A stretch of DNA of 64,000 bases from Acidimicrobiaceae bacterium. GTDB taxonomy: Bacteria; Actinomycetota; Acidimicrobiia; Acidimicrobiales; Bog-793. The notes under the pieces are model-generated. The model was given only the letters and a program-made list of their open reading frames with translations, had not been told where the DNA came from and did not search any database. Positions 5,037 to 46,261 of the stretch are shown here, one piece after another. How positions within the stretch are numbered: the stretch's first letter is position 1; each line of letters starts with the position of its first letter. The position numbers and the translations under genes were made by a program. The stretch is from positions 7,312 to 71,311 of the forward strand of contig PLDN01000108.1 in NCBI GenBank assembly GCA_003136185.1. The letters are read 5' to 3'.

Positions 5037-5663
5037 TCACCGAATGCCTTCGGTGACAGCGCGGATGATGTCGTCGGTGGCGGCGTCTACGGCCGGAAGT
5101 GCCGCCGTCAGCACGCTCGTTACTGCCGGTAACTCTGCCTCGGAGAACCGCAGGAGGGGCCGGGACTGCAGCCGGCGGTGAAGTGCGCGGGCGACCATTT
5201 GCGGCTCCTCGTAGCCGAGCCACCAGCGCTCGTCCCTCATCGTGGCGAAGAGTTGTTGCCAACGGCTTGCAGCGTCGGAGGAGACGGCTGCGGTGACATC
5301 AGGTGCTCTCGCCAACACCTGGACGAATTCCGCTTGCACTCCGGCGCGGGTGAGAAGGCAGCCGTCGAGCACGAGCTCGTAACCCGCGTGGCCCACGGCT
5401 CGAACCGGGCCAGTCGACAGGCCGGCTGCCAGAAGACCGTCGCGGATCTTGCCTGAGCCCGTGCGGAACGTCTCGAGTGCGTGGAAGGCCTTGTCGGCTC
5501 GGTGGTGGAGGACGACGCCGGCCTCGACGCCAGGGGATAGCTGCGACCTGTCGATCCGCGTGCCGGCCATGGACGCCAGATCGGGAAGGGCGGCTCCAAA
5601 GGCTTGCTCCCAACCGTCCCCGTCGCATCGGAGGGCAACGTGAGAATGGGCGACGAAGTTCAC
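5037..5663 (-). CDS. Acyl carrier protein phosphodiesterase (AcpH/DUF479)-like protein
   Basis: From GTG 5663: VNFVAHSHVAL... (compare E. coli AcpH MNFLAHLHLA), then VEAGVVLHHRADKAFHA (AcpH: VVAGIHMHRRIDVLTD) and WWLGYEEPQMVARALHRRLQSRP (AcpH: [23 protein letters not shown]). The upstream 40 codons of the tracked ORF are Arg/Pro-rich and not family-like. Confidence 0.55.
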   Translation of the reverse strand: MNFVAHSHVALRCDGDGWEQAFGAALPDLASMAGTRIDRSQLSPGVEAGVVLHHRADKAFHALETFRTGSGKIRDGLLAAGLSTGPVRAVGHAGYELVLDGCLLTRAGVQAEFVQVLARAPDVTAAVSSDAASRWQQLFATMRDERWWLGYEEPQMVARALHRRLQSRPLLRFSEAELPAVTSVLTAALPAVDAATDDIIRAVTEGIR

Positions 5664-5755
5664 CTCCGTACCTTTGTCGATGCGCAGGCGAGGCGCCTGC
5701 CTTGGCTGTCTCGGTCGGCTCGGTTCGGCTGCCACGACACAACCCCAGACGCGCC

Positions 5756-5784
5756 GATGCGGCCTGCCAGGGGCAGACCGCATC
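5756..5784 (-). terminator. Stem-loop downstream of the DoxX-like gene
   Basis: GATGCGG-CCTGCC-AGG-GGCAGA-CCGCATC: 7 bp plus 5 of 6 bp nested stem, 27 nt after the stop at 5811. No U-tract, which is common in high-GC actinobacteria. Confidence 0.35.
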
Positions 5785-5810
5785 GGGTTATGTGACTGAG
5801 GAGCGGACCG

Positions 5811-6401
5811 TTAGGCGGCCTTGGCCTGCTCTTGGGTCCCAGCCACGACCAACGCTGGGCTCGAGGACAAGCCGGCCCGGCGACGCTGGCGGTAGCCGGC
5901 GATCAGGCCGTCGACCCCGATCCAGCTGGAGGTCTTCCATGTGGCGAGGAGCACGATTGCGAACAGTGCGTAGAACGCACATACGCTGGCGGTTCCCGTC
6001 ATGACGTAGGTGAACAGCAGTGCCAGGCTGCCGAGTGCCGCAACCGGGGTGAAGAGGCCAAGAACCAGGCCGCACCCGATGGCGAACTCTGCCAGGGCAA
6101 TAAGGATGCCGATCCAGCCTGCGTTAGGGACAACGAAGCCGTGTAGGAAGCTTCCCCACCAGCTGTAGGCGGGGATCCCGTGGCCGGCGAAGCCGGCGAC
6201 TCCTGCGCCACCGTTGTGCATGAACGCTGGGTTCTCCGCGCCCCAGAGCTTGGCGACGCCAGCCTGGAGCCACATGATCCCGAGCCACACTCTCATGGCG
6301 GTCCAACCAATTGCCATGACCTTCGACTCGGCTAGCCAGTGAAGGGGCCGAGAGGCTTTGACTTCGGACGGATTGCTGAGTAATGCAATGGGATTCTTCA
6401 T
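5811..6401 (-). CDS. DoxX-family integral membrane protein
   Basis: Start MKNPIALLS at ATG 6401-6399, preceded by GAAGGAAG. Four hydrophobic helices are present (WLGIMWLQAGVAKLW, GWIGILIALAEFAIGCGLVLGLFTPVAALGSLALLF, FYALFAIVLLA), the typical DoxX/DoxD pattern. Confidence 0.7.
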   Translation of the reverse strand: MKNPIALLSNPSEVKASRPLHWLAESKVMAIGWTAMRVWLGIMWLQAGVAKLWGAENPAFMHNGGAGVAGFAGHGIPAYSWWGSFLHGFVVPNAGWIGILIALAEFAIGCGLVLGLFTPVAALGSLALLFTYVMTGTASVCAFYALFAIVLLATWKTSSWIGVDGLIAGYRQRRRAGLSSSPALVVAGTQEQAKAA

Positions 6402-6739
6402 CGAAATTCTCTTCCTTCTGGTCCGGCTCCCCCGGACCTCAACGCCATCCTGAGCGCATGCGCGCGTGTCTGTGAGAGGCAAAGGTCCCGCTAGCCCGGC
6501 CAAAGGTCCCATCTCCGCCTGTAAAGGGCCGGGACGGGCGCGTCGGTATCGGCAGCGGCGGCGCCATTAGAGTGCGACGGCGGTCGCGGACGTCCAACGA
6601 ATGGCTGCGACGCTCGCAAGCCGCAGGTATCCGAGCCTCGAGATCGAGTGCCAGGTCCAAGCCGGAGAGTTCCACGCGAGCACCCCCGCTGTCAGCTTCT
6701 CCCGCTGCCTCCGCTATCTGTACGATGCGCCGCGCTGAG

Positions 6740-7150
6740 CTAGCGCTTGGCCGGCTCGGACTCGAGCGCTGTAAGGAGCGTCTCGGTCTCAGGGCCGAAA
6801 TACGGGCGGGCTCGCTCGAGCGTCCGCGCTGACAGAGCGAGCAGTACCTGGTCGTACAGGGTGGTCATGGAGTCGATCTGTACGTGGTTGCAGATCGCCT
6901 CGAAGGCATCGCAGCACCGCTCGATCAGGGGCTCAGGGCCTCCAGACGCGATCAGATCGCTGAAGAAGTCGGCGAGCTCGTTGAGCACGATGTCATCGGT
7001 CAGGTCCTCCTCGTAGAGGTCCTCGAGATCGAGGTAGTACTGGTCAAACTCCGGCGCGAGGGCACCCCGGACGATAGGCGCGCACTGGAGCGTGATCTCG
7101 TCGGGATCGAAGGGTGCGGGTGCGGCTTGGCTGGCCGGCGTGATGGGCAT
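6740..7150 (-). CDS. Hypothetical acidic cytoplasmic protein (136 aa)
   Basis: The ORF has a GAGGGAGA Shine-Dalgarno 6 nt upstream of ATG 7150. Composition is protein-like and helical (DQYYLDLEDLYEEDLTDDIVLNELADFFSDLI). I recognise no family. Confidence 0.55.
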   Translation of the reverse strand: MPITPASQAAPAPFDPDEITLQCAPIVRGALAPEFDQYYLDLEDLYEEDLTDDIVLNELADFFSDLIASGGPEPLIERCCDAFEAICNHVQIDSMTTLYDQVLLALSARTLERARPYFGPETETLLTALESEPAKR

Positions 7151-7446
7151 GATCGGTCTCCCTCAAGTAGCTGGGTAGCTGTGGGTAGCTGTGTGGAGGG
7201 TCGCCCGGAACTCCGAGCCGCCGATCAGATCGCAACGGTTCGAGAATATCTTCCCGGCAGCGCCTCCCGCTTCACCGCCACTGACCGCCTTGCGTTCGCC
7301 CATCGAAAGCTCCATTGATCAGGCGTAGCTGAGACATCACGCTGGCGGAGGTTTTACGTGCGGCAACGAATGTGGGCGGGCGGACCTTTTAGATGAGTCA
7401 ACGCGGCCGCCTCGCCCGGACCAACCCGCGCCAGTAGGCTGCGCCG

Positions 7447-7914
7447 GTGCCTGGGAACTCCTCTAACGGATCGCGCCGTCTCGCGCTTGCGTCACTCGCC
7501 CTTCCCATCGTCGCCATGATGGGACTGTTCGGCTGGGCCGGCACGGAGGCCGTCGCCAGCCCGCTCAACATCGTGCGCTCCTTCTTTGTCGCCTTCAACG
7601 CGCAGGATTGCGCCACGATGTCAAATGAGCTGTACACCGCTCCAGGTCAGAAGCCTCCGACTTGCAAGGACCTGACAGGCGGCGGCGGGACCAAGCTGGT
7701 CGATTGCAAGCTGACCGTGACGACGGCGCCCGTATCGCTCGGGCAAGCGGCCGAGACGGCGCCGAGCGGCTACGGCGATTCGAGCTGGATCAAGGCATCG
7801 TGCGTCGAGACGACGAAAGGCAAGCGATCGACTCTCGTATTAGATGTCTTCGTCGCGACCGATACGACAACGGGTCAACAAGTGATCCTCGCGCTGCAGA
7901 ACGCCGGCTCCTGA
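7447..7914 (+). CDS. Secreted small protein, possibly NTF2/SnoaL-like fold
   Basis: N-terminal signal-like segment RRLALASLALPIVAMMGLFGWAGTEAVA|SP. The mature part starts NIVRSFFVAFNAQD (SnoaL-like helix) and carries four Cys. Confidence 0.6.
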   Translation: MPGNSSNGSRRLALASLALPIVAMMGLFGWAGTEAVASPLNIVRSFFVAFNAQDCATMSNELYTAPGQKPPTCKDLTGGGGTKLVDCKLTVTTAPVSLGQAAETAPSGYGDSSWIKASCVETTKGKRSTLVLDVFVATDTTTGQQVILALQNAGS

Positions 7915-15809: not shown

Positions 15810-15859
15810 GGAGCGCGCAACGGTAATCGCTCGATATCGGACTCTGCAGTGTTGCTCTG

Positions 15860-15942
<83 letters not shown>

Positions 15943-15999: not shown

Positions 16000-18102
16000 A
16001 TGCAATGGCGCCGGAACGAGTCGGTAATACATGGGCCTCTCCGCCCTGGCGAGCTAGCCGAGGTCGCAGTCCTCGGCGACCTCGCGCTCGTGCTCGAGGT
16101 GATCGGCTGGTTCGCACCGCTCGGTGGCGCCTTCCAGGCTCTTGCGATCGTGCCGTTCGCCGTTCTCTCTTCGCGGCATCGTCTGCGGGCGGGAGTGATC
16201 GCGGTGGTGAGTGCCGCGTCGGTGGCGTTTCTCATCGGAGGCATCGGCATCGTGCTCCAGACGGCACTCGCCGGGTCGGTTGGCCTCTCGATCGGGACGA
16301 CCTTCCGTCGCAGGTGGACTTCAGGCGTGTCGGTCGCGATAACGCTCCTCGTCGCCGGCGTGCCGATCGCAATCGTGAGCGACTTCGTGGACTGGATCTC
16401 GCCAGGATTCCGCCGCCTCAGCTTCGCCCAGGTCAGGCTGTTGTGGCGGGACGTTGTGCGAGTGCTCGACGGTTTAGGGATGTCGCAGGCGGCAGCCAAC
16501 GGCACGCACACCTTGAACGTTGCGACCACCAACTGGTGGATCACGATCCCGGTCGTGGAGTTAGCCGCCGTCTTGTTGGTGGCGGCGCTTTGTCTGAGGA
16601 TCCGGCCGTTTCTTCTTGCGCTCACGAAGACCTCGCTGGCTCCATACACCGGTGGCCTCGCCGAGCGCGCCGCAGGGGTGGAGGGCCCGATCGCGCCGGT
16701 GCCGGCTCGGGTTGAAGGAGTCTGGTTCCGGTATCCGGAGGCTAGAACCGACGCTTTGTCCGGGGTGGACCTCGAAGTCAAAGGAGGTGCGCTCGTCGCG
16801 TTGGTCGGACCGAATGGATCGGGGAAGTCGACGCTCGTCCGGGTGATCGCCGGACGACTCGACCCGGTGATCGGCCGTGTCGATCGACCCGGTCGGCCTG
16901 GTTACGGAGAACGCGGTGGGACGGCCATGGTCTTCCAGCGTCCCGAGAGCCAGGTTCTTGGTGTCAGGGTTAGAGACGACTTGTGGTGGGGACTCGAGAC
17001 AGGCGCACGGCCCCCGATCGGCCCCCTGCTCGGGTTGGTGGGGCTCGAGGGCTTCGAGGAGCGGGAGACGGCCACGCTCTCCGGCGGCGAGCTGCAACGC
17101 CTTGCGATCGCTGCGGCTCTCGCGCGCGAGCCCAAGCTCGTCATCTCGGACGAGGCGACGGCGATGCTCGACGCGGAGGGGCGAGCCGACATCATGGCGC
17201 TGCTGGAGCGACTGCGCGATCAGGGACTCGCGGTCGTCCACGTGACGCACCGGATGGCCGAGACGCGGGTGGCTGATGTCGTGGCGGAGATGCGGCAAGG
17301 ACGGGTCGTGTCTATCGGGAGTCCGGCGGATTCCGGCGCCGCTCCGACGACCGGAGAAACGGTCGTCGGACTCGCCCCCAGATCCGCGGGCGGACCCGGA
17401 GGCCGCCCCGGGCCACAGCAAGGGGAGAGGCTGGGGGAGCGGGAGCGGCCGTTTCCTCTTGTGAGTTTGCGGGGGGTGGGTTACGAGTACGCGGCGGGGT
17501 CGCCTTGGGCCAAGCGGGCTCTGCAGGGAGTCGATCTCGACCTCGGGACCGGGGAAGGCGTCGTCGTCACGGGAGCGAACGGCTCGGGCAAGACGACCCT
17601 GGCGTGGATCCTCGGTGGGTTGATGGCTCCGTCGGAAGGCCGGGCCTATATCGGCGGCAGCCCGATCGATGCTGCACCTGGTCGCGTAGGAGTCGCCTTC
17701 CAACACGCCAGGCTCCAGCTGCTCAAGCCGTGGGTACTGGCTGACGTTGCCGCTGGCGCGAGTGACGACGCCGCCCGCGACGCCTTGAGGGCCGTCGCCC
17801 TCGATCCCTACGAGATCGGTCCGCGGAGGGTCGACGATCTCTCGGGCGGTGAGCAGAGGAGGGTAGCTCTTGCAGGGCTCCTGGTACGCCGCCCCGACTT
17901 GCTGGTTCTCGACGAGCCCTATGCCGGCCTCGACGACGAGGCGCGCTTGGCCCTCGCCTCGGTGCTGCGAGACCTTCGGCTGAACCACGGCATCGCGACC
18001 GTGGTCGTGTCGCACGATCTCGACAACGCCGAGATGCTCGGGGAGCGCCTCGTCAGACTGGAAGCGGGCTCCGTCGTAGGCGAGGAGCTCATCGCATGGT
18101 GA
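16000..18102 (+). CDS. ECF-type transporter fusion: N-terminal multi-pass membrane domain plus two ABC ATPase domains (EcfA-EcfA')
   Basis: Residues 1-~230 form 5-6 hydrophobic helices. ATPase 1 has [37 protein letters not shown]. ATPase 2 has GANGSGKTTLA, LSGGEQRRVALAGLL, LVLDEPYAGLD. The size and architecture recall mycobacterial Rv2326c-type proteins (from memory). Confidence 0.85.
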   Translation: MQWRRNESVIHGPLRPGELAEVAVLGDLALVLEVIGWFAPLGGAFQALAIVPFAVLSSRHRLRAGVIAVVSAASVAFLIGGIGIVLQTALAGSVGLSIGTTFRRRWTSGVSVAITLLVAGVPIAIVSDFVDWISPGFRRLSFAQVRLLWRDVVRVLDGLGMSQAAANGTHTLNVATTNWWITIPVVELAAVLLVAALCLRIRPFLLALTKTSLAPYTGGLAERAAGVEGPIAPVPARVEGVWFRYPEARTDALSGVDLEVKGGALVALVGPNGSGKSTLVRVIAGRLDPVIGRVDRPGRPGYGERGGTAMVFQRPESQVLGVRVRDDLWWGLETGARPPIGPLLGLVGLEGFEERETATLSGGELQRLAIAAALAREPKLVISDEATAMLDAEGRADIMALLERLRDQGLAVVHVTHRMAETRVADVVAEMRQGRVVSIGSPADSGAAPTTGETVVGLAPRSAGGPGGRPGPQQGERLGERERPFPLVSLRGVGYEYAAGSPWAKRALQGVDLDLGTGEGVVVTGANGSGKTTLAWILGGLMAPSEGRAYIGGSPIDAAPGRVGVAFQHARLQLLKPWVLADVAAGASDDAARDALRAVALDPYEIGPRRVDDLSGGEQRRVALAGLLVRRPDLLVLDEPYAGLDDEARLALASVLRDLRLNHGIATVVVSHDLDNAEMLGERLVRLEAGSVVGEELIAW

Positions 18103-22305: not shown

Positions 22306-22998
22306 CTAGGCGGCCCCCGCCGGCACCACGAATAGCTGGCGGCTCATAGCTGGACCGAGCGGTACCGACACGCCGCCGATGTCGATCGTGAGGGTGCCGT
22401 CCGGTGCCTTCGACAGCACCGTTGCGACCACTCCCGGGATGAAGCCGCTCTCGCTCAGGTACTCGAGTGCGCCCGCGTCCACTTCCACCTGCTCGGTGAT
22501 CCGAGCCAATCGGATCGCTTCGCCCGGCCGGGCGTCAGCGAGCGCGTGCTGGGCAGTTCTCGCCTGTGGTGCCCCGGGGATCGGGTTCCCGTGCGGGCAG
22601 GTTGAAGGGTTGCCGAGAATCTCGACGAAACGAGCCTCCACCTCATCTGAGATCACGTGCTCCCACCGGCCGGCTTCGAGGTGGGCCTTCGCCCACGGCA
22701 GCCCAACGATGTCGACGAGGAAGCGCTCGGCGAGGCGGTGCTTGCGCACGACGCTCTCGGCTCGTGCCCGTCCCTGAGTGGTCAGCGTGACGCCCCGGCC
22801 GCGTCGTGCGACGTATCCCTCACCTTCGAGTCGGTGCACCATCTCGGAGACCGATTGCGGGCTGTGCCCCAGCCGCTCGACGAGGCGCGCCTGGATAACT
22901 GGGACGCCCTCTTCCTCGAGAGCGTGGATCGTCTCGAGGTACTCCTCGAGCGGGGGATGGAATCCGTCGGGCGCCACTACCGCGATCGTACCTACCAT
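22306..22998 (-). CDS. DtxR/MntR-family metal-dependent transcriptional repressor with C-terminal SH3-like (FeoA) domain
   Basis: From ATG 22998 (alternatively GTG 22977): LEEYLETIHALEEEGVPV, ...HRLAERFLVDIVGLPWAKAHLEAGRWEHVISDEVEARF..., aligning residue for residue with DtxR/IdeR. 230 aa. The upstream 236 codons of the tracked ORF are antisense to polA. Confidence 0.85.
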   Translation of the reverse strand: MVGTIAVVAPDGFHPPLEEYLETIHALEEEGVPVIQARLVERLGHSPQSVSEMVHRLEGEGYVARRGRGVTLTTQGRARAESVVRKHRLAERFLVDIVGLPWAKAHLEAGRWEHVISDEVEARFVEILGNPSTCPHGNPIPGAPQARTAQHALADARPGEAIRLARITEQVEVDAGALEYLSESGFIPGVVATVLSKAPDGTLTIDIGGVSVPLGPAMSRQLFVVPAGAA

Positions 22999-23001
22999 GG
23001 C

Positions 23002-25812
23002 GTGGTGGCCCCCTACCTGCTTCTCGACGGGCACTCGCTCGCCTTCCGTGCCTGGTTCGCCCTGAAGGATGCCAACCTCGTCACTTCTTCCGGCCAGGAG
23101 ACCCAGGCGGTCTACGGATTTGCGGGGATGCTCGGCCGGCTGCTCGAAGATCACTCGCCCGTCGGCATGGCGGTCGCCTTCGACCTGAGCGGGCCGACAT
23201 TTCGGGACGGCATAGCCGCGGATTACAAGGCGGGGCGGGCGCCTACCCCGGAGACATTGCACGAGCAAGTGAATCTCATCCGGCGCGTGGTCGAGCTGAT
23301 GGGGATCCCGGTCGTGGAGATTCCCGGCTACGAGGCGGACGACGTGCTCGCCACTCTCGCCACCCGGCTCGACGAAGCGGGCGAGGACGTCATCATCGTG
23401 ACCGGCGACCGGGACTGCTACCAGCTCGTCCACGATCCCCACGTCCGCGTCCTCTACAACCGGCGTGGTGTCACGGACTACGTCTTGTACGACGAGAGCG
23501 GCATCGTGGACCGGACGGGGGTCACGCCCGATAAATATCCCTTCCTCGCAGCTTTGAGAGGCGATCCTTCCGACAACCTGCCGGGCGTGCCGGGAGTGGG
23601 GGAGAAGACCGCTGCCAAGCTCGTCAACGCCTACGGTGACATCGACTCGCTCTACGCCCATCTCGACGACCTGACGCCGAAGTTGCGCGCATCGCTCGTA
23701 GATCACGAACAGCGAGTCCGCCAGAACTTCTTGATGACGCCGCTCGTGCGGGACGTACCGCTCGGCTACGAGCTCGCCGACCTCCGCCTTGGAGGATCGG
23801 ATCGAGAGGAGCTCAACAACCTCTTCACGCTCCTCGAGATCCGCGCACCGCGAGACCGGATCCTGAAGGCCCTCGACCGGCTGGAAGACGGCGGCACGGG
23901 CGCGAGCGCCGGGGCGCCGCAGGGACCGGCTAGCACGACAAGCCTCCGGCCGTTGAAGGTTGAGGTCATCGACGAGGTGGCAAGAGCACGATCGGTCCTC
24001 GGCGAGCTCGTCGCGACCGGCGGGGCGATCGCCGTCGACCCGGAATGGACCGGCCTGCCGGGCCGATCGGAGCTCGTCGGGCTGGCGCTCTCGGCGGTGG
24101 AGGACGCGCCTGGCGCTGACGAGGGACCGCGCTCACCGGATCGGAGCGCATACTTCCTTCCCGCTTCGCTGCTCGCTGACGTCCGTGAAGAGCTCAGCGC
24201 CGTGCTCGGCACCGGCGCCGAGACGGAGCCCCGGTTAGTGGCGTTCAGGGCGAAAGAGCTCATGAGAGTCCTCATGCCGCTCGGCTATGAGATGACCGGC
24301 CTCGACCTCGACTTGGCGGTAGCCAACTACCTGGTCGACCCGAGTGGAGCCCAAGCCACTCTCCAGGCAATGGCGGGTAACCCCGAGGCACAGGCCTCGA
24401 GTGCGACCGGGACCCAGCTCGGCTTTGATGTCGCCGGAGACGCAGCCCAACCTTCGGTCGCCGAGGCGGCCGGCGCGCGAGCCGCCCTGCTCGCCGAGCT
24501 CGCACCTCAGATGCGCTCGACGCTGGCGGAGAACGGCGCCGAGACGCTCTACGAGACGATCGAGCGGCCGCTCATCCGGGTCCTTGCGAAGATGGAGATT
24601 GCCGGGGTTGCCGTCGACCGCGCACGTCTCGAGCAGATCAACGCCGAGCTCACCTCTGAGTCCGAGCGACTCGAGGCAGAGGTTCAGCAATTGGCGGGCG
24701 AGTCGTTCAGGGTCAACTCGACCCAACAGCTCCGCCACATCCTGTTCGAGGTGCTAGGCCTCACGCCTCAGAAGAAGACGAAGACGGGCTACTCGACCGA
24801 TGCCCAGAGCCTCGAGAGACTGCGCGACGCGCACCCGATCATCGAGACTCTGCTCGCATATCGAGAAGTAGAGAAACTCCGCTCCACCTACGGCACCGGC
24901 CTTCTTTCTGAAGTGGCCCCTGACGGCCGGATCCATGCCTCGTTCAACCAGACGGTCGCGAGGACCGGTCGCCTGTCATCCGACCAGCCCAACCTCCACA
25001 ACATCCCTGTGCGCTCGACGCTCGGGCGGCAGTTCCGCGAGGCTTTCGTACCGGGCGAAGGCTGCGAGCTGCTCGTTGCTGACTACGACCAGATCGAGTT
25101 GCGCGTGATCGCCCACCTCGCCGAGGACCCGGGCCTCATCGAGGCGTTCCGGACGGGCGTCGACATTCACAGCGTGACGGCACAGCGCATCTTCGGCGTC
25201 GACGCTGCCGGGGTGACTCCGATGATGCGGTCGCGGTCGAAGATGGTCTCTTACGGCCTCGCGTACGGCATGGAGGCCTACGGCCTCTCACAGCGCCTTG
25301 CCATCCCGGTCGAGGAGGCGGCCGCGATCTTGAACCAGTACTTCGTCGCTTTCCCGAACGTGAAGGCCTACATGAACCAGACCATCGGAGACGCGCGGGC
25401 AAAGGGGTACACCGAGACGTTGTTCGGCCGTCGGCGGTACCTCCCCGAGCTCGGCTCCTCGAACTATCAGGTGCGCCAAGCGGCCGAGCGACAGGCGATG
25501 AATGCGGGCATCCAGGGCCTGGCGGCCGACATCTTCAAAGTGGCGCTCGTCGGTTTGGACAGCGCTCTTTGCGAGGGCGGCTTTGCCAGCCGGATCATCT
25601 TGCAGGTCCACGACGAGATCCTCACCGAGGTCGTCCTGGCCGAGTCGGACGAGGTGGCGGCGTTGACCGAGGACGTGATGCGGTCGGCTGCCGATCTGTC
25701 GGTACCGCTCGCCGTGCACGTCGCCCGCGGCCCGACCTGGGCATCGGCGAAAGACGGCGGCGGAGTCGTCCTAGAGGACCTTGACGACGAGGACCTGGCA
25801 GCCGACTTCTGA
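23002..25812 (+). CDS. polA: DNA polymerase I
   Basis: The 5'-3' exonuclease N-terminus starts at GTG 23002/23005 (VVAPYLLLDGHSLAFRAWFAL, GYEADDVLATLA, TGDRDCYQL). Polymerase motifs are DYDQIELRVIAHL, RSKMVSYGLAYG, QVHDEILTEV. Confidence 0.93.
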   Translation: MVAPYLLLDGHSLAFRAWFALKDANLVTSSGQETQAVYGFAGMLGRLLEDHSPVGMAVAFDLSGPTFRDGIAADYKAGRAPTPETLHEQVNLIRRVVELMGIPVVEIPGYEADDVLATLATRLDEAGEDVIIVTGDRDCYQLVHDPHVRVLYNRRGVTDYVLYDESGIVDRTGVTPDKYPFLAALRGDPSDNLPGVPGVGEKTAAKLVNAYGDIDSLYAHLDDLTPKLRASLVDHEQRVRQNFLMTPLVRDVPLGYELADLRLGGSDREELNNLFTLLEIRAPRDRILKALDRLEDGGTGASAGAPQGPASTTSLRPLKVEVIDEVARARSVLGELVATGGAIAVDPEWTGLPGRSELVGLALSAVEDAPGADEGPRSPDRSAYFLPASLLADVREELSAVLGTGAETEPRLVAFRAKELMRVLMPLGYEMTGLDLDLAVANYLVDPSGAQATLQAMAGNPEAQASSATGTQLGFDVAGDAAQPSVAEAAGARAALLAELAPQMRSTLAENGAETLYETIERPLIRVLAKMEIAGVAVDRARLEQINAELTSESERLEAEVQQLAGESFRVNSTQQLRHILFEVLGLTPQKKTKTGYSTDAQSLERLRDAHPIIETLLAYREVEKLRSTYGTGLLSEVAPDGRIHASFNQTVARTGRLSSDQPNLHNIPVRSTLGRQFREAFVPGEGCELLVADYDQIELRVIAHLAEDPGLIEAFRTGVDIHSVTAQRIFGVDAAGVTPMMRSRSKMVSYGLAYGMEAYGLSQRLAIPVEEAAAILNQYFVAFPNVKAYMNQTIGDARAKGYTETLFGRRRYLPELGSSNYQVRQAAERQAMNAGIQGLAADIFKVALVGLDSALCEGGFASRIILQVHDEILTEVVLAESDEVAALTEDVMRSAADLSVPLAVHVARGPTWASAKDGGGVVLEDLDDEDLAADF

Positions 25813-25970: not shown

Positions 25971-27524
25971 ATGTCCGTCACAACCCTTGCAACGCCCACC
26001 CCCGACGATTCGGAGCGCTTCGGCACCTTCGACGCGATGGGCACGTACATCCCGATGCAGATCACCGAGGATGACCTGGGAGATCTTTCCCTCGAAGAGG
26101 CAATCGACAGCACGATCCACCCGTTCGACGATGGCGACATCGTGAAGGGCACGGTCGTCAAGATCGACAAGGACGAGGTACTGCTCGATATCGGCTTCAA
26201 GTCCGAGGGCGTGATTCCCTCCCGCGAGCTATCGATTCGCCACGATCTCGACCCGCATGAGGTGGTCTCGCTCGGTGAGGAGATCGAGGCGCTCGTCCTC
26301 CAGAAGGAGGACAAGGAAGGCCGTCTCATCATGTCGAAGAAGCGCGCGCAGTACGAGCGCGCTTGGGGCGACATCGAGCGCATCAAGGAATCGAGCGGCA
26401 TCGTGAAGGGCCCGGTCATCGAGGTCGTGAAGGGCGGGTTGATCCTCGACATCGGCCTGCGGGGTTTCTTGCCGGCTTCCCTCGTCGAGTTGCGCCGGGT
26501 GCGCGATCTGCAGCCTTACATCGGTCGCGTGCTCGAGGCGAAGATCATCGAGCTCGACAAGAACCGCAACAACGTCGTGCTCTCCCGGCGGGCGTGGCTC
26601 GAGGAGACTCAGCGCGAGCAGCGCGGCGAGTTCCTCGTGAACCTGAAGCCCGGCGAGGTCCGCAAGGGCGTGGTCTCCTCGGTCGTCAACTTCGGTGCGT
26701 TCGTCGACCTCGGTGGCATGGACGGTCTCGTCCACGTCTCGGAGCTCTCGTGGAAGCACGTCGACCACCCGTCATCGGTGGTCGCAGTCGGCGATGAAGT
26801 CACAGTCCAGGTGCTCGACGTCGACCTCGACAAGGAGCGGATCTCGCTCTCGCTGAAGGCGACCCAGGTCGACCCGTGGCAGGAGTTCGCGACGAACCAC
26901 CGCATGGGCGAGCTCGTCTACGGTCGCATCACCAAGCTCGTGCCGTTCGGCGCCTTCGTCCAGGTCGGCGATGGGATCGAAGGACTCGTTCACATCTCCG
27001 AGATGGCCGCTCACCACGTCGACCTGCCCGAGCAGGTTGTCACACCGGGCGAAGAGCTCTGGGTGAAGATCATCGACATCGACCTCCAGCGCCGCCGGAT
27101 CAGCTTGTCGATCAAGCAGGCCGCAGAGGGCGGCATCGTGGCCGAGGAGTACCAGGAAGCGTTCGGCGAGCACGCCTACGACGAGCAGGGCAACTACATC
27201 GGATACGACTATTCGACCGAGTTCACTCCTGAGACCGAGGCACAGGCGGCTTGGGCTGACTTCCAGGCCGTAGCAGGTGACGCCGCAGCCGAACCCGCAG
27301 CGTCTTCGGCGTCTGGAGAAGAGGGAGGCCCCGCCGATCCCGCACCGGCGGCCGCAGCTGAGGCCGAAGTTGTTGCCGAGATCGAGGCTGAGGCTGTCGT
27401 CGAAGAGATAGCGGAGGCAGAGGCCGTCGTCGAAGAGATAGTTGAGGCTGAAGCGGTCGTCGAAGAGGTTGCCGAGACCGAGGCCGCCGAGGCGGCCGAC
27501 GAGGCTCCTGCAGCGACGGAGTAG
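25971..27524 (+). CDS. rpsA: 30S ribosomal protein S1 with an acidic repeat tail
   Basis: Repeated S1/OB domains (GDIVKGTVVKIDKDEVLLDIG, GIVKGPVIEVVKGGLILDIG, GEVRKGVVSSVVNFGAFVDLG, GELVYGRITKLVPFGAFVQVG). The C-terminal ~90 aa are Ala/Glu-rich. Confidence 0.95.
   Translation: MSVTTLATPTPDDSERFGTFDAMGTYIPMQITEDDLGDLSLEEAIDSTIHPFDDGDIVKGTVVKIDKDEVLLDIGFKSEGVIPSRELSIRHDLDPHEVVSLGEEIEALVLQKEDKEGRLIMSKKRAQYERAWGDIERIKESSGIVKGPVIEVVKGGLILDIGLRGFLPASLVELRRVRDLQPYIGRVLEAKIIELDKNRNNVVLSRRAWLEETQREQRGEFLVNLKPGEVRKGVVSSVVNFGAFVDLGGMDGLVHVSELSWKHVDHPSSVVAVGDEVTVQVLDVDLDKERISLSLKATQVDPWQEFATNHRMGELVYGRITKLVPFGAFVQVGDGIEGLVHISEMAAHHVDLPEQVVTPGEELWVKIIDIDLQRRRISLSIKQAAEGGIVAEEYQEAFGEHAYDEQGNYIGYDYSTEFTPETEAQAAWADFQAVAGDAAAEPAASSASGEEGGPADPAPAAAAEAEVVAEIEAEAVVEEIAEAEAVVEEIVEAEAVVEEVAETEAAEAADEAPAATE
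27384..27473 (+). repeat. 3 x 30-nt in-frame tandem repeat in the rpsA tail
   Basis: Units 27384-27413, 27414-27443 and 27444-27473 (gaggctgaggctgtcgtcgaagagatagcg and variants) encode EAEAVVEEIA / EAEAVVEEIV / EAEAVVEEVA. Confidence 0.85.
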
Positions 27525-27561
27525 CCCGACTTCGATTCGCCCGACCGGTCCCATGATGCGG

Positions 27562-27583
27562 CTCCTTTGTGTACACAAAGGAG
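27562..27583. promoter_or_regulatory. Perfect 22-nt palindrome overlapping the Shine-Dalgarno of the Phd-like ORF
   Basis: CTCCTTTGTGTACACAAAGGAG equals its own reverse complement. It lies 38 nt after the rpsA stop. Its right arm contains AAGGAG, 7 nt before ATG 27590. Confidence 0.5.
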
Positions 27584-27589
27584 TCACAG

Positions 27590-27967
27590 ATGACTGATCT
27601 GAAGAGCGTCGGCGTGAGGGAGTTCTGGAACAATGCGAGCACGTACTTGTCCGGCTCCGAGCCTGTCGCTGTTAATCGTCATGGCAAGGTGATCGGCTTC
27701 TACATCCCGGCGGAGCGCGACGAAGACGCGAGCGAGCGTGCCCATAGCGGCATCGTCTCGGCGAGTTCATGGGTGAGCGGCGCGAGCAGGCGGACGTGCC
27801 CGTCTGAGGTCTCAATGAACTCAGCCTTGCGGAAGGTCGGCGTTCCACCATGTCGAGCACGAAGCCTTCGACTTCAGGCCGGACCGGCTCGATCAGGTCG
27901 AGCGCCATGCTTCGAGGATCGTGATTGGTCGCCAGCTCGCCACCTGGCGCTCGAAGGCTGCCGGTGA
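27590..27967 (+). CDS. Phd/YefM-type antitoxin-like ORF; only the N-terminal ~45 aa look genuine
   Basis: MTDLKSVGVREFWNNASTYLSGSEPVAVNRHGKVIGFYIPAERDED matches the antitoxin N-domain pattern (..vsvre.r.n.s..l.......v.itrhGkpva.lvp.e). After about nt 27725 the frame becomes Ser/Arg/Cys/Trp-rich and runs antisense to a better minus-strand reading. There is no partner toxin ORF downstream on this strand. Confidence 0.5.
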   Translation: MTDLKSVGVREFWNNASTYLSGSEPVAVNRHGKVIGFYIPAERDEDASERAHSGIVSASSWVSGASRRTCPSEVSMNSALRKVGVPPCRARSLRLQAGPARSGRAPCFEDRDWSPARHLALEGCR

Positions 27968-28460
27968 GATCCGTCCTTCGCCCAGCAGAACGACAAGCCC
28001 CAAGTAGCGAGCCACGCTGCGGGCTCCCCGGCGGCTGACCGTGACGTCTTCGAGGACGGAGGCTCCAGCACCGAGCTGGGCGAAGAACGTGACGACCGGG
28101 AGAACGTCGCCCGGCGCGTCGTGGCCGAGCGCTTGGCGGGCGCTGAGATCCCCGTGATGTACCAGGCGGCGCTCATACTCGGCCCGGTGGACCGCAGCCC
28201 GCTCGGCTGGAGTTTCAGCGGTGCACCGTTTCGGCTCGCCACGATGGGCGCGCGCTAAGAGCTGGGAGTCGACCTCCCGCCGGGCTGCCATCAATGCTCC
28301 TGTTTCAGGCGTGGGCCGATGTCATCGAGCCGCTTGCCGTCCAGGGACCTAGCCGCGGCGGCGATGATGCGGACGCGTACCGGCTCGCACGAGCCGCCAT
28401 CTACCGCGACCGATTTCGGAGGATCGTTCACGAGACCGGAGAGATCCTGCGCGGGCACCT
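27700..28460 (-). pseudogene. Cas1-like (CRISPR integrase/casposase family) gene, broken into at least four frame segments
   Basis: Minus-strand segments in order: EVPAQDLSGLV...ARSLDGKRLDDIGPRLKQEH* (28458-28291); MAARREVDSQLLARAH...ALGHDAPGDVLPVVTFFAQLG...VSRRGARSVARYLGLVVLL (28291 to ~27945); GGELATNHDPRSMALDLIEPVRPEVEGFVLDMVERR (27944-27837); FRKAEFIETSDGHVRLLAPLTHELAETM...* (27834-27700). By eye these match the successive conserved Cas1 blocks with roughly correct spacing. The call is from memory of Cas1 alignments, not a search. Confidence 0.4.
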
Positions 28461-29181
28461 CGGTCCAATCGACAGCTCGGAGGACGTGCTTCCGAGGATG
28501 GCCGCCGGTCCGGGCGCGGCGGTAGCTGTGCTCCTCCAGCGAACTCTCATTGAAGCTTTCACTGTGGAGCCAGCGCCCGGGCGTGATGTGCCTGCTTGAG
28601 ACTGACGTGTGCCGCTGCCACGCTCACTGGGGGACCGCCCAGCTGCGAGGCAGCTCGATGACACGGGGCGCTTCGGTGAGCTGAAGGCTGAACAAGCCGA
28701 GGCTCCACGGGTCGACGCGATCGCGGCGAGCCCGACGGTTTGCTGGACGACCGCGATCTTGAGCCATTTCACGTTGCTTTGGGTGCCATCATGTTCGCCG
28801 ACCAGGTCAGCGACGTCACGCGGCGCAAGGCCGTCGAGTTGTTGGATCGATTCCCGCTCATCGAGACCTACCGGAGTCAACTCGACCTTCTGGAGCCAGG
28901 TCACGCCTGGATCGCGGATGCTCCTGCGCGTGAGTTAGCTGCAGTGGCGCAAGCTGCGATCACGTTCGCCGAAGCAGCTTTCGCAGGCGCACTCGACGGG
29001 GACATGGTTCCTTGGCCGCTCGTGTGGGTGATGGTCGTCTGCTTTGGCCCAAGCTTCGGCTATCTCAGGACAGTTGCTCAGCTGTTCGCTGAAGCGGGGA
29101 CCCCCGCCGGCAACGATCGTCCCATGGCTCGACTCCGAGCGCCTGGCAGCATCCGACTCGTCGGCACTTGCTTAACCGCCC

Positions 29182-29212
29182 CGGCCGGTCCGGTGCGAGG
29201 GCGGACCGGCCG
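29182..29212. terminator. GC-rich stem-loop 3' of the 29226-30077 gene
   Basis: CGGCCGGTCCG-GTGCGAGGG-CGGACCGGCCG: perfect 11-bp stem and 9-nt loop, 14 nt below the stop at 29226-29228. No U-tract. Confidence 0.45.
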
Positions 29213-29225
29213 TCCGGAGCGTTGC

Positions 29226-30077
29226 TCAGCAGGTCGCGGAGTCCGGCGAGCTGCCTGGCCCGATCTCGGGATCGTCGACGATGCCCTGCGAGGTGGACCG
29301 GAGTATGGCGCCCAGGTGCACGACGTACCACTCACCTCGCCACGAGATGAGAGAGGCGATACCGAAAGAGCGGACCTGGCCGTCCTGTCGGTAGACGATG
29401 CGCGAGTTGGCGACCTCGTAGTACCCGACGCTGTTGTCGCAGACCCCGGGGGGGATCCAGTGGCCGTACTGCTCGGGAACGTTGACGACGATCAAGCTGG
29501 CCCTTCCCGCGAGCTGGCCGAGGAGGGCGTGGGCGGCCTGCAGATCGGCGGCGAAGTCGGCGAGAAGTCGATAGGTGTAGTCGGCCGCCGGGTCGGAGAG
29601 GGTCTTGAGCTGGAGGTAGGCGTTCTCGGGGAAGAAGGCCGGCCGTGCCTCGACGGGCGAGCCGGAGACCACCCCCCGCCACAAGGCGGCCATCTCCGCT
29701 TGGAACTCCGAGGATGTCGACGTCGGGAACGCGCTGGTCTGGGGCAGGCTCCCGGCATCGGTCGTCGAGGTGGCAGGCACCGTCGTCGTCGGAGGATCAG
29801 TCGTCGTGGTCACGCCAGTGGCGGACGTGGTGGTGGCAACGGTGCCGGTAGTGGACGTGGTGCTGGCAACGGTGCCGGTGGTGGTCCCACCAGCAGCCGA
29901 GAGTGGTCCCGGCGAGCCCGAGGTCAGCACGACCGCTGTTGCAGCCCCCCCGGCGACGACGAACGCAGCCACCGCGGCCGCGACAAAGCGGTTTCGGCGA
30001 ACCCGCCGACGGCGGTGCCGGCCACCTGGGCGGATGGGGGGGCCGAGCGGGGACACGGGCGGCTTTGGGGCGGTCAT
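29226..30077 (-). CDS. Membrane-anchored extracytoplasmic protein with Thr-rich linker and an unassigned ~170-aa C-terminal domain
   Basis: From ATG 30077: MTAPKPPVSPLGPPIRPGGRHRRRRVRRNRF-VAAAVAAFVVAGGAATAVVL (single TM helix), a Thr/Ser-rich linker (TTTGTVASTTSTTGTVATTTSATGVTTTTDPPTTT), then a globular domain (...ENAYLQLKTL...VNVPEQYGHWIPPGVCDNSVGYYEV...WRGEWYVVHLGAIL). ATG 30122 is an alternative start. The upstream part of the 440-aa tracked ORF is Arg/Gly junk. Confidence 0.7.
   Translation of the reverse strand: MTAPKPPVSPLGPPIRPGGRHRRRRVRRNRFVAAAVAAFVVAGGAATAVVLTSGSPGPLSAAGGTTTGTVASTTSTTGTVATTTSATGVTTTTDPPTTTVPATSTTDAGSLPQTSAFPTSTSSEFQAEMAALWRGVVSGSPVEARPAFFPENAYLQLKTLSDPAADYTYRLLADFAADLQAAHALLGQLAGRASLIVVNVPEQYGHWIPPGVCDNSVGYYEVANSRIVYRQDGQVRSFGIASLISWRGEWYVVHLGAILRSTSQGIVDDPEIGPGSSPDSATC
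29821..29880 (-). repeat. 2 x 30-nt tandem repeat encoding the Thr-rich linker
   Basis: 29821-29850 versus 29851-29880 are 27/30 identical (gcggacgtggtggtggcaacggtgccggta / gtggacgtggtgctggcaacggtgccggtg). On the minus strand they encode TGTVASTTST/TGTVATTTSA. Confidence 0.8.
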
Positions 30078-30173
30078 CGGACAGCCACCATGGTAGGGGC
30101 ATTCGGTCTGTGAGCCCGACATCGACGATGGCCGCGGGGCCGCCGGGCTGAGGGTGGTGCGTAGTCTGACGGC

Positions 30174-31292
30174 GTGCCCAGCCCTCGCTCCCAGCCTCGT
30201 CGCCGACCGTGGGCGGCGTCGGCGGTCCTGGCGAGCGCCATGGTGCTCCTCGCCTCCTGCAGCGGGGTGGGCTCGAGCGCTCACGGGCAGAGACGGTCGA
30301 ACCGGTCGACCTCGTCGTCGACGGGCGCCGGCCACGTCGCCACCACCACCTCCCGAGGCCCGACCAGCACTACCAGCACGACCACCACGACCGTCGCGAT
30401 CCCCTCCCACCTGCCGGCGCCGCGGCCGTTGACTCCCTTTGGCGCGCTCTCGGCGAGCGGCCAGGGCGTGTGGACGCCGGCAGGTCGCCGGGTCCAGGGC
30501 CTGAATGCCGTCTACGAGACGACGCTCGTCCCTGCCGGTGGCGCCCAACGCGCCGGGATCGCTTGGATGGACACGCGACTGCTTTCGGCGCGGCTCTACT
30601 CGGGCTCGATCAGCCCTGGCGGTGGCCCGTACCGCTTCACCGCCCCAGTCCTGCCCCGCCAGTCGGCATCCCTCGTCGCCGCCTTCAACGGCGGTTCCCA
30701 GATGGGCGTGGCCGGGGGCGGTTACTACACCGAGGGCCGGCTCATCGACCCGCTCGTCGCCGGAGCGGCCTCCCTCGTGATCTACTCAGACGGCTCCGTG
30801 GCCGTCGGGGCTTGGGGCAGTGACGTCGCAATGACCCCGAACGTGGTGGCGGTCCGCCAGAACCTGGTTCCCCTCGTGGCCGACGGTCGACCGACCGCGC
30901 AAGCGGCCAGCGCCGACTGGCAGTCATGGGGAGCGACGTGTGGGGCGACGTCGTGCCTCCCGACCGTGCCCGGCATCGAGCACCAGTGGCGGTCGGGCGT
31001 CGGAGTGACCGCGGACGGCGCGCTCGTCTACGTCACCGGGTCGGCGCTCGATCCCCTCCAGCTCGCTCAGCTGCTGGTCCAGGCCGGTGTGGTCCGGGGG
31101 ATGCAGCTCGACATCAATCCCTTCTGGACCGTCCTGGTGACCTACGATCCGCCCACGCCGGGTGGCAAGGCCGCACCGTCCAACGGCAGCAAGCTGCTAG
31201 GCGCGACCGAGCAGGGCCCGGCCACTTTCTTCGATCCCTTGTGGGCGCGGGACTTCGTCACCATGTCGGCGCGGTCGGCATCAACGGGCTGA
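30174..31292 (+). CDS. Lipoprotein, phosphodiester glycosidase (NAGPA/DUF2233-like) family
   Basis: Signal peptide plus lipobox AMVLLASC|SG and a Thr/Ser-rich linker. The C-terminal domain has RSGVGVTADGALVYVTGSALDPLQLAQLLVQAGVVRGMQLDINPFW, matching the family pattern R.a.G...dG.l..v...g......la.ll...G...a..LD.g. Confidence 0.75.
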   Translation: MPSPRSQPRRRPWAASAVLASAMVLLASCSGVGSSAHGQRRSNRSTSSSTGAGHVATTTSRGPTSTTSTTTTTVAIPSHLPAPRPLTPFGALSASGQGVWTPAGRRVQGLNAVYETTLVPAGGAQRAGIAWMDTRLLSARLYSGSISPGGGPYRFTAPVLPRQSASLVAAFNGGSQMGVAGGGYYTEGRLIDPLVAGAASLVIYSDGSVAVGAWGSDVAMTPNVVAVRQNLVPLVADGRPTAQAASADWQSWGATCGATSCLPTVPGIEHQWRSGVGVTADGALVYVTGSALDPLQLAQLLVQAGVVRGMQLDINPFWTVLVTYDPPTPGGKAAPSNGSKLLGATEQGPATFFDPLWARDFVTMSARSASTG

Positions 31293-45640: not shown

Positions 45641-46261
45641 GTGATTGCGATTGGGCTCACCGGCGGAATCGGCTCCGGCAAATCGACAGTGGCCTCGATG
45701 CTCGTCGAGCGCGGAGCCGTGCTGATCGACGCAGACGTGTTGGCGCGCGAGGTGGTCGAGCCCGGGCGGGAGGCGTTCGGCAAGGTGCGGTCGCGTTTCG
45801 GCGACGACGTACTCGCAGCCGACGGATCCCTCGACCGCGCAGCGTTGGCGGCGATCGTCTTCGCCGACGCGGCGGCGCGGGCTGACCTGAACGCGATCGT
45901 CCATCCCGAGGTCGGGCGGGAGATGCTGGAGCGCCTCGCACAAGAGGCGGACACCGATCACATCGTGATCCTCGACATTCCCCTTCTGGCAGAGGGCGGG
46001 CGTGACCGCTACCGGGTTGCAGGGGTGCTCGTCGTCGACTGCCCTCTCGAGCTCGCGATCGAGAGATTGGTTACCCAGCGGGAGATGAGCCGGAACGATG
46101 CTGAGCGGCGAGCCGCCGCGCAGATCTCTCGTGAGGAGCGACTTCGTGTTGCCGACTTCATCATCATGAACATGGGGAGCATCGAAGAGCTGGCGGAGAT
46201 GGTGCGCCGGGCGTGGGAGTGGATCGAGTCTTTGAGGGCGGAGGCGGCTGCGACGTCTTGA
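45641..46261 (+). CDS. coaE: Dephospho-CoA kinase
   Basis: GTG lies 2 nt after the upstream stop. VIAIGLTGGIGSGKSTVASML, IDADVLAREVVEPG, VLVVDCP. 206 aa. Confidence 0.9.
   Translation: MIAIGLTGGIGSGKSTVASMLVERGAVLIDADVLAREVVEPGREAFGKVRSRFGDDVLAADGSLDRAALAAIVFADAAARADLNAIVHPEVGREMLERLAQEADTDHIVILDIPLLAEGGRDRYRVAGVLVVDCPLELAIERLVTQREMSRNDAERRAAAQISREERLRVADFIIMNMGSIEELAEMVRRAWEWIESLRAEAAATS

Follow-up and report, generated by a model that had tools for sequence, protein, structure and literature searches.

The subject of this analysis is a 64,000-nucleotide stretch of Acidimicrobiaceae DNA (contig PLDN01000108.1; hereafter the window, with a high GC content of about 65%) and, within it, the 0.8 kb directly downstream of rpsA, which had originally been predicted to carry one frame-broken cas1 gene. 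It is very probable that the segment at approximately 27728-29105 is a non-functional relic of a family-3 casposon. Casposons are mobile elements that insert by means of a Cas1-type integrase, generating target-site duplications, while their replication is attributed to a family-B DNA polymerase (PolB) of their own (PMC4046053, PMC9939771). Three adjacent fragments of the segment match three genes of one element type, and the order and orientation seen in intact relatives are kept, with large gaps, and it is on this account that a casposon relic is deduced. The pieces of the region are as follows, where C-numbers denote clusters of neighbour genes defined in this analysis and C9 is the P0002 family.

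27590-27727, plus strand: antitoxin-like stub, with homologs named antitoxin or PHD/YefM
27727/27728: junction J1, where the antitoxin-like stub meets the casposase fragment
27728-27911, minus strand: casposase fragment (tblastn at E 1.7e-24, nucleotide alignment and blastp)
27911/27912: junction J2, from nucleotide alignment to the related locus L003
27911-28291, minus strand: C9/P0002-family fragment (tblastn to P0002)
about 28292-28311: junction J3, where the C9 fragment meets the left-arm pseudogene
28312-29105, plus strand: left-arm pseudogene (tblastn of proteins from the related loci L160 and L023)

Cas1-derived DNA is confined to 27728-27911 of the minus strand, where 62 of about 500 codons survive, corresponding to residues 238-299 of the 497-amino-acid (aa) protein P0007. 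Two intact relatives, P0007 and P0016, match 27911-27837 and 27837-27727 in tblastn at 89-95% identity (E 1e-23 to 1e-24), while the nucleotide identity to L003:10832-11016 is 91.9% and the nucleotide alignment ends the Cas1 homology at 27728. One nucleotide has been deleted between 27838 and 27837, and the reading frame changes at 27837, according to both tblastn and nucleotide alignment; the original prediction was right that such a deletion exists and wrong in placing it at 27835/27836. The fragment retains the codons for D242 and E245 (P0007 numbering) and is devoid of those for the catalytic E142 and H230, for the zinc ribbon and for the helix-turn-helix (HTH) domain, which leaves the catalytic tetrad, i.e. 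the equivalents of E. coli E141, H208, D218 and D221, incomplete.

The four minus-strand peptide segments from which one gene had been assembled are present in the sequence as quoted, and the third and fourth of these blocks are Cas1 by the above tblastn matches. The proposal that they form one cas1 gene of about 300-340 aa across 27700-28460, broken by three disruptions, was rejected, since no more than the last ~45 residues of the concatenated translation match Cas1 profiles; only the 62 codons are Cas1 and the remainder belongs to two other genes. This restriction was common to Pfam, NCBIfam and PADLOC: the concatenation scored 22.3 bits on Pfam Cas_Cas1, which equals the gathering score, over profile positions 224-269 only (13.7 bits, under threshold, for the fragment alone), it matched PADLOC Cas1 models at E 2e-5, and in NCBIfam it gave weak subtype matches only (I-C, I-D and Cas4g/Cas1g; E 0.017-0.14). 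Likewise, a database search with the concatenation returned two separate sets of matches, namely Cas1-domain proteins of 390-500 aa from Acidimicrobiales over ~21% of the query at 80-95% identity, and 174-aa hypothetical proteins devoid of a Pfam domain over a different ~38% of it at about 60% identity. The profile and tblastn searches support Cas1 for 27728-27911 and do not support it for the first two blocks, and the histidine counted in the third block falls upstream of J2, in non-Cas1 sequence. Chaining of motifs by eye across frames can, in this manner, fuse unrelated genes into one false pseudogene.

The presumed second Cas1 block (27911-28291, minus strand) matches residues 1-128 of the 174-aa P0002 family instead, at 63% identity (E 3e-44, tblastn), and it is part of a separate gene unrelated to Cas1. 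What had been taken for a shift near 27945 is in fact the point, at 27911/27912, where fragments of two unrelated genes meet, and at 28291-28294, where a TGA and a frame change had been supposed, the P0002-like open reading frame (ORF) merely begins. The P0002 family has no Pfam or PHROG match, and its AlphaFold model, with a predicted local distance difference test (pLDDT) of 80.9, has no fold match in the PDB. J2 joins C9 codon 128 to casposase codon 238; in the nucleotide alignment, window position 27912 corresponds to L003:1931 and position 27911 to L003:10832, which amounts to an internal deletion of ~8.9 kb. Compared with an L003-type element, this deletion took out the DnaB-like helicase, the predicted PolB and the ParB-like methyltransferase, along with small genes and the 5' 710 nt of cas1.

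The third fragment is read from the opposite strand. In tblastn, a 309-aa protein of L160 (1853-2782, minus strand) matches the plus strand at 28312-28719 and 28725-29105 with 39% and 28% identity, respectively (E 1.2e-22), and a 338-aa protein of L023 (17014-18030, minus strand) matches it at 28312-28743 and 28743-29045 (E 2e-15) through two in-frame stops. The pseudogene covers residues ~35-302 of 309, is interrupted by stops at 28597-28599 and 28603-28605 and is frameshifted between about 28719 and 28743. At J3, the first ~34 codons of this left-arm gene and the intergenic DNA between it and C9, ~0.7 kb in all, are gone. The first of the supposed Cas1 blocks (28291-28458, minus strand) has no family match on its own strand and is antisense to this pseudogene. 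The phase-specific GC profile at 28300-28900 fits either strand and leaves the strand ambiguous, so that homology decides for the plus strand, and for the part comprising the first block it is the plus-strand ORFs, by homology to L160 and L023, that are the frames conserved in relatives.

The related loci were found with an alignment of full-length Cas1 relatives, which was used to scan GTDB at one genome per species and yielded 58 loci, nearly all of them in metagenome-assembled genomes (MAGs) of peat or soil Acidimicrobiaceae/Acidimicrobiales; some MAGs hold several, with at least four in MFD05580.bin.2.14. Their gene order was derived from tblastn, from neighbour clustering and from loci fetched around P0002-family genes. 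In L160, a leftward arm of genes encoding 173, 189, 46 and 309 aa is followed by a rightward arm encoding 46 aa, 105 aa, C9 (174 aa), 107 aa, a DnaB_C protein, ~990 aa, 141 aa, 132 aa and an N6/N4 methyltransferase, then by one leftward gene and, at the right end, by Cas1 (525 aa). The same order is conserved in L003, L004, L155 and L160, and the general plan includes a ParB-like N6/N4 methyltransferase, small zinc proteins and, rightmost, a casposase composed of Cas1, zinc ribbon and HTH. In L003, L004, L007, L021 and L160, C9 and cas1 share a strand, with C9 placed 8.4-9.8 kb upstream, and in L160 and L023 the left-arm gene (309 or 338 aa) is the divergent neighbour of C9. Nucleotide homology between L003 and L004 stops at the 3' end of cas1, which puts cas1 at the right end of the conserved block. 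The intact Cas1 proteins keep all four residues E142, H230, D242 and E245 and carry a C-terminal CxxC...CxxC zinc ribbon together with an HTH_31 domain.

The polymerase of these elements is the cluster C1, which comprises ~1000-aa cas1-neighbour genes in 23 of the cas1 loci; the window has no match to it, and the gene is deleted from the relic. Motifs discerned by eye (DxE / YxxxD / DxxSxYP / KxxxNxxYG / DTDS) resemble Exo I, Exo III and polymerase motifs A, B and C. An assignment to PolB by sequence alone was attempted and abandoned, as Pfam, PDB profile and PHROG searches were unhelpful, and it was structure prediction that resolved the identity. The C1 proteins of L042 and L006 gave no Pfam match in the first scan and no PHROG match, and the profile search against the PDB returned only matches of E~0.8, located at PolB motif C. 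About a third of the best or close matches among 2244 homologs from the profile search carry PF03175 (DNA_pol_B_2), and the own hmmscan score of C1 against PF03175 is 24-25 bits (E 1e-5), slightly below the cut-off. The AlphaFold model of the L042 protein (pLDDT 86.5; predicted template modelling score 0.84) has family-B DNA polymerases as all of its top 50 PDB fold matches, the best being phi29 polymerase (E 1e-10, probability 1.0). C1 is therefore predicted, on its modelled fold, to be a PolB, and it also carries a C-terminal HTH.

Several peculiarities of the related loci may be recorded here. Extra copies of the cas1 3' end occur downstream of complete cas1 genes at L023:12248-12520 and in L004 near 13075, and L028 has two cas1 genes (7188 and 9830) 2.6 kb apart; the extra copies suggest relics nested in one another or insertions in tandem, a situation already described for the casposons of Methanosarcina. 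Dozens of database proteins begin, with MEPVRPEV..., in the region that the window fragment covers, and others fuse the casposase C-terminus to a tyrosine integrase (P0104) or to a sigma-70 factor, the set including P0105, P0047 and P0081. Such proteins probably arose when genes were called on casposase relics that had been truncated or frameshifted, from which it follows that decay is common in this casposase family. In the casposon-like locus L007, fragmented PolB-like ORFs stand next to a gene (5590-7746) whose 718-aa product is 25% identical to PolA of the window (family A) over the polymerase domain. A stand-alone 94-aa ORF at L001:5368-5652 (minus strand) is homologous, at 43-75% identity, to the casposase C-terminal HTH domain and occupies the left side of a casposon-like element, on the opposite strand.

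To place the fragment and its relatives among known Cas1 families, blastp was run with 12 reference Cas1 sequences hand-copied from Additional file 2 of Krupovic et al. 2014 (PMC4046053), with the following E values.

Family 3, Saccharopolyspora spinosa / Streptomyces albulus: intact relatives 1e-51 to 1e-89, 35-47% identity over ~300 aa; 62-aa fragment 1e-13, 50% identity
Family 3, Nitrosomonas / Henriciella: relatives 1e-24 to 1e-42; fragment 5e-7 to 8e-8
Family 2, Aciduliprofundum boonei: relatives about 1e-20, 22-26% identity; fragment, no match listed
Family 1: relatives 1e-9 to 1e-14; fragment 0.009
CRISPR Cas1: relatives 1e-7 to 1e-17 at best; fragment at least 0.003

By these pairwise scores the fragment is a piece of a family-3-type casposase.

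The elements differ in what could be seen of their ends. L042, a complete 16,391-bp contig of a Chloroflexota MAG, has 65-nt inverted repeats (1-65 and 16220-16284) that are 88% complementary, together with genes for PolB, an HNH-like protein, ParB/HTH, Cas1 with zinc ribbon, an N6-methyltransferase and a Res-like helicase, and from this content it looks like an intact casposon with restriction-modification cargo. Its repeat begins GGGATAGGATATAGG and resembles the published MetMaz-C1 repeat GGGATATAGGTAAG, which is a resemblance only, and it has no match in the other loci or in the window. No conserved end emerged from 14 aligned regions downstream of cas1, and a short-BLAST search of L160 for inverted repeats found none.

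The course of events that would best account for the segment begins with an Acidimicrobiaceae-type casposon, complete at that time, lying downstream of rpsA. At least two internal deletions would have followed, one of ~8.9 kb joining C9 codon 128 to casposase codon 238 and another of ~0.7 kb falling between C9 and the divergent left-arm gene. Both ends would have been truncated as well, with the loss of everything 3' of casposase codon 299 and everything beyond the left-arm gene, after which the 1-nt deletion, the two stop codons and the frameshift would have been acquired. The presumable outcome is three fragments of about 1.4 kb in total, inert at present, with nothing able to integrate or replicate; the former completeness of the element and the order of the deletions are likewise what we infer.

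Several points weigh against this reconstruction. The family placement comes from pairwise BLAST against the 12 hand-copied references and not from a phylogeny. Among 80 rpsA relatives compared (68-88% identity), none has a gene on the downstream side of rpsA in common with the window, and neither an empty nor a filled site is available for comparison; integration at this exact site in the past is accordingly something that we infer. Neither inverted repeats nor a target-site duplication survive in the window, where weak pairs at chance level were all that was found, and no inverted repeats were seen for the type-A elements L160, L003 and L004, a type that is nearest to the relic, the repeats being limited to the more distant L042. 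Moreover, the C9-derived ORF is still open over 133 codons (27893-28294), of which the last 5 are out-of-frame codons from the Cas1 fragment; this stub is the sole intact reading frame of the relic, and although it is without the conserved C-terminal third of its family, its openness could point to a residual or retained host function.

A lost CRISPR-Cas locus, i.e. a CRISPR-associated cas1 decaying after the disappearance of cas2, the effector genes and the array, had been proposed alongside a Cas1-solo or casposon-like element. The Cas1 profile matches described above (subtypes I-C, I-D and Cas4g/Cas1g, and the PADLOC models) are in keeping with such a locus, and the earlier observation that no cas2, effector genes or CRISPR array accompany the fragment was confirmed by a negative array scan of the window, by Rfam (one tRNA, nothing else) and by PADLOC (no Cas model among 48 window ORFs). 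However, the fragment and its relatives are far closer to family-3 casposases than to CRISPR Cas1. The intact relatives score 113-128 bits on Pfam Cas_Cas1 (PF01867) and 67-110 bits on the generic TIGR00287, whose cut-off of 71.7 they are described as passing; on the CRISPR-subtype models, where relatives score 50-106 bits, no cut-off (range 120-560 bits) is reached, and the best scores of five intact Cas1 proteins, 64-106 bits, stand against cut-offs of 385-560 for the models concerned. A zinc ribbon and an HTH of the casposase type are also present at the C-terminus of the relatives, and the fragments flanking the Cas1 piece are casposon genes and not cas genes. Neither the 64-kb window nor the 58 related loci among L001-L060, within 10 kb, contain a CRISPR-like array, although the same scan was positive in the control viral-contig loci L061-L065. 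Taken together, a vanished CRISPR-Cas locus seems very improbable, and it is the casposon-like element, in view of the casposase affinity and the PolB-bearing relatives, that was the right suggestion.

It is unlikely, albeit less so, that the relic stems from a Cas1- and PolB-bearing mobile element other than a true casposon, such as an integrative plasmid or provirus that used another recombinase and in which Cas1 had a different role. That view would accommodate the failure to find inverted repeats for the type-A Acidimicrobiaceae elements, their plasmid- or phage-like genes (DnaB-like helicase, ParB-like methyltransferase, HTH_17, Phage_zn_bind_3), the database chimera P0104, in which a casposase C-terminus is joined to a tyrosine integrase, and the match of P0007 to phrog_35024, a PHROG family of phage proteins of unknown function (E 1.5e-13). 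Yet the Cas1 proteins keep their four catalytic residues, occupy the rightmost position in the conserved block and cluster with published casposases; one relative has long terminal inverted repeats, and clustering revealed no integrase gene among the conserved neighbours. The IMG/VR scan found no relative of the family either, its six viral-contig matches being ordinary Cas1 fragments of 25-47% identity, and in five of these six loci CRISPR-like arrays were present. A prophage, suggested by neighbours such as DnaB, a DEAD helicase, a ParB-methylase and HTH_17, was dropped after the polymerase and casposase results and the IMG/VR scan. That the segment is an artefact of assembly or sequencing, or the similarity fortuitous, is hardly credible. 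The sub-threshold Pfam score of the fragment alone (13.7 bits) and the metagenome-type genome might invite such a doubt, but eight independent assemblies (GCA_003132285.1 among them), made from different samples of JGI, ENA and NCBI, agree at 99.9-100% identity and without a single indel over the 1776 bp at 27525-29300, and the lesions are genuine and fixed in this population. The window's RpsA protein is present on 23 contigs. With 62 of about 500 codons left, indel correction could not restore a gene, and tblastn matches to intact proteins at E 1e-24 and 92-95% identity exclude chance.

By casposase similarity, the closest known systems to the element from which the relic very probably derives are the family-3 casposons, among them StrAlb-C1 of Streptomyces albulus, the element of the Saccharopolyspora spinosa casposase, AceAut-C1 and NitAL212-C1 (PMC4046053). 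Few bacterial casposons have been published, the 2014 description having four elements of family 3 (PMC4046053). The relatives have the same Cas1 architecture as AceAut-C1, with a C-terminal zinc-binding domain and HTH, and their divergent PolB matches several PolB structures, which was also reported for StrAlb-C1; methyltransferase, ATPase and HNH-like genes are shared, and the sizes are similar, at about 10-16 kb, with inverted repeats in L042. The Acidimicrobiaceae relatives depart from the published members in that they also encode a DnaB-like helicase and a ParB-like methyltransferase, in that the searches revealed no inverted repeats, in that they are multi-copy (at least four loci in one MAG) and in that their casposases are only 35-47% identical to the published ones. 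The window copy differs further in being reduced to three gene fragments without PolB, ends or an intact casposase.

The archaeal family-2 casposons of A. boonei and Methanosarcina mazei share with the relatives the C-terminal HTH of both Cas1 and PolB, the latter having been reported for family-2 PolBs (PMC4046053), and integration activity has been shown for the casposases of both archaea (PMC9939771). The M. mazei casposase (PDB 6opm) is the second-best PDB sequence match to P0016 (E 4.8e-14). Family 2 is nevertheless set apart by its archaeal hosts, by a much lower casposase similarity (about 1e-20 for A. boonei) and by targeting of tRNA 3' ends, which was not seen here, the nearest tRNA being 11.6 kb away. 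CRISPR Cas1 proteins, for instance those of actinobacterial types I-E and I-C, have in common with the intact relatives the superfamily fold, the catalytic motif region, PF01867 and TIGR00287; they are distinguished by the relatives' extra zinc ribbon and HTH, by the relatives' failure on subtype models and by a BLAST similarity far below that to casposases, while the scans of the window found no cas2, array or effector genes of a CRISPR adaptation system. A divergent family-B polymerase is also found in pipolins and Polintons, as seen in the PF03175 score and in the phi29-like best fold match. Pipolins and Polintons use tyrosine or retroviral-type integrases, whereas the conserved end gene of the relatives is a Cas1 homolog.

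In itself the relic is a further example of a known element type and of low intrinsic interest; the more interesting by-product is the abundance of casposons in Acidimicrobiaceae. Tentatively, peatland Acidimicrobiaceae may harbour a large radiation of family-3-like casposons, apparently not yet described, of which the relic would be one member and which may represent a new subfamily with different end recognition. This proposal draws on the 58 loci in GTDB species representatives, with many pseudogenised copies and read-through chimeras, on a distinctive gene set of DnaB-like helicase, ParB-like methyltransferase, a C9 without known fold and a Pfam-divergent PolB, and on the failure of the searches to detect terminal inverted repeats; a literature search found no paper linking casposons with Acidimicrobiia. 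MAGs of peat and soil Acidimicrobiaceae contain dozens of Cas1- and PolB-bearing elements, frequently with several in one genome and at every stage of decay, and the series offers material on the turnover, ends and targets of bacterial casposons and may serve studies of the origin of CRISPR adaptation. For annotation purposes, 'casposon remnant' is the proper designation of the region and not 'degraded CRISPR-Cas locus', and a lone Cas1-like signal in an actinobacterial genome ought to be tested against casposases before lost CRISPR immunity is inferred.

With regard to the sequence at J1 (27727/27728), the antitoxin-like stub is cut exactly where the casposase fragment starts. It comprises the first ~46 codons of a 70-83-aa protein with homologs of 70-84% identity (E 1e-13 to 5e-17), several of them named antitoxin or PHD/YefM by JGI. 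The earlier designation as a truncated antitoxin is supported solely by these source-given names, as there is no Pfam or PDB match, and the stub may be either host sequence or other mobile DNA. A palindrome of 16+16 nt at 27557-27588, 14/16 complementary (TGCGGCTCCTTTGTGT / ACACAAAGGAGTCACA), stops 2 nt short of the stub's start codon and may be the operator of a former toxin-antitoxin promoter or the rpsA terminator. Full-length homologs of the stub occur in L162-L166 (L162: 6001-6237), followed, with a 4-nt overlap, by a gene for a 260-aa Abi_C (PF14355) protein, and in three of these five loci (L162-L164) the pair stands beside ThsB_TIR and/or SNF2/Eco57I-type genes. Judging from this gene content, the antitoxin-like and Abi_C pair looks like a two-gene defence or toxin-antitoxin module.

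The genes adjoining the region on either side are as follows.

22657-25812, plus strand: polA
25971-27524, plus strand: rpsA
within 29226-31292, minus strand: ~300-aa Thr-rich membrane or secreted protein
within 29226-31292, plus strand: ~350-aa protein with a weak NAGPA (phosphodiester glycosidase) match and an N-terminus that is lipoprotein-like by eye

The two divergent genes at 29226-31292, beyond the relic, are likewise absent from all 80 rpsA relatives and may be accessory DNA. A weak inverted pair at 27495-27514 and 29146-29165 (20 nt, 75% complementary) brackets the whole relic, with one arm in the last codons of rpsA; its position is suggestive, though it is probably due to chance. 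The sole tRNA of the window, a tRNA-Leu(CAA) at 15859-15942 (minus strand), is 11.6 kb upstream of the relic. The original prediction had set the region between rpsA and coaE, which is correct for the rpsA end at 27524 and only loosely valid for the other side, where a coaE-type P-loop (GLTGGIGSGKS) is encoded at 45653 on the plus strand, in a coaE-like gene that lies, at about 45.65 kb, 18 kb beyond rpsA.

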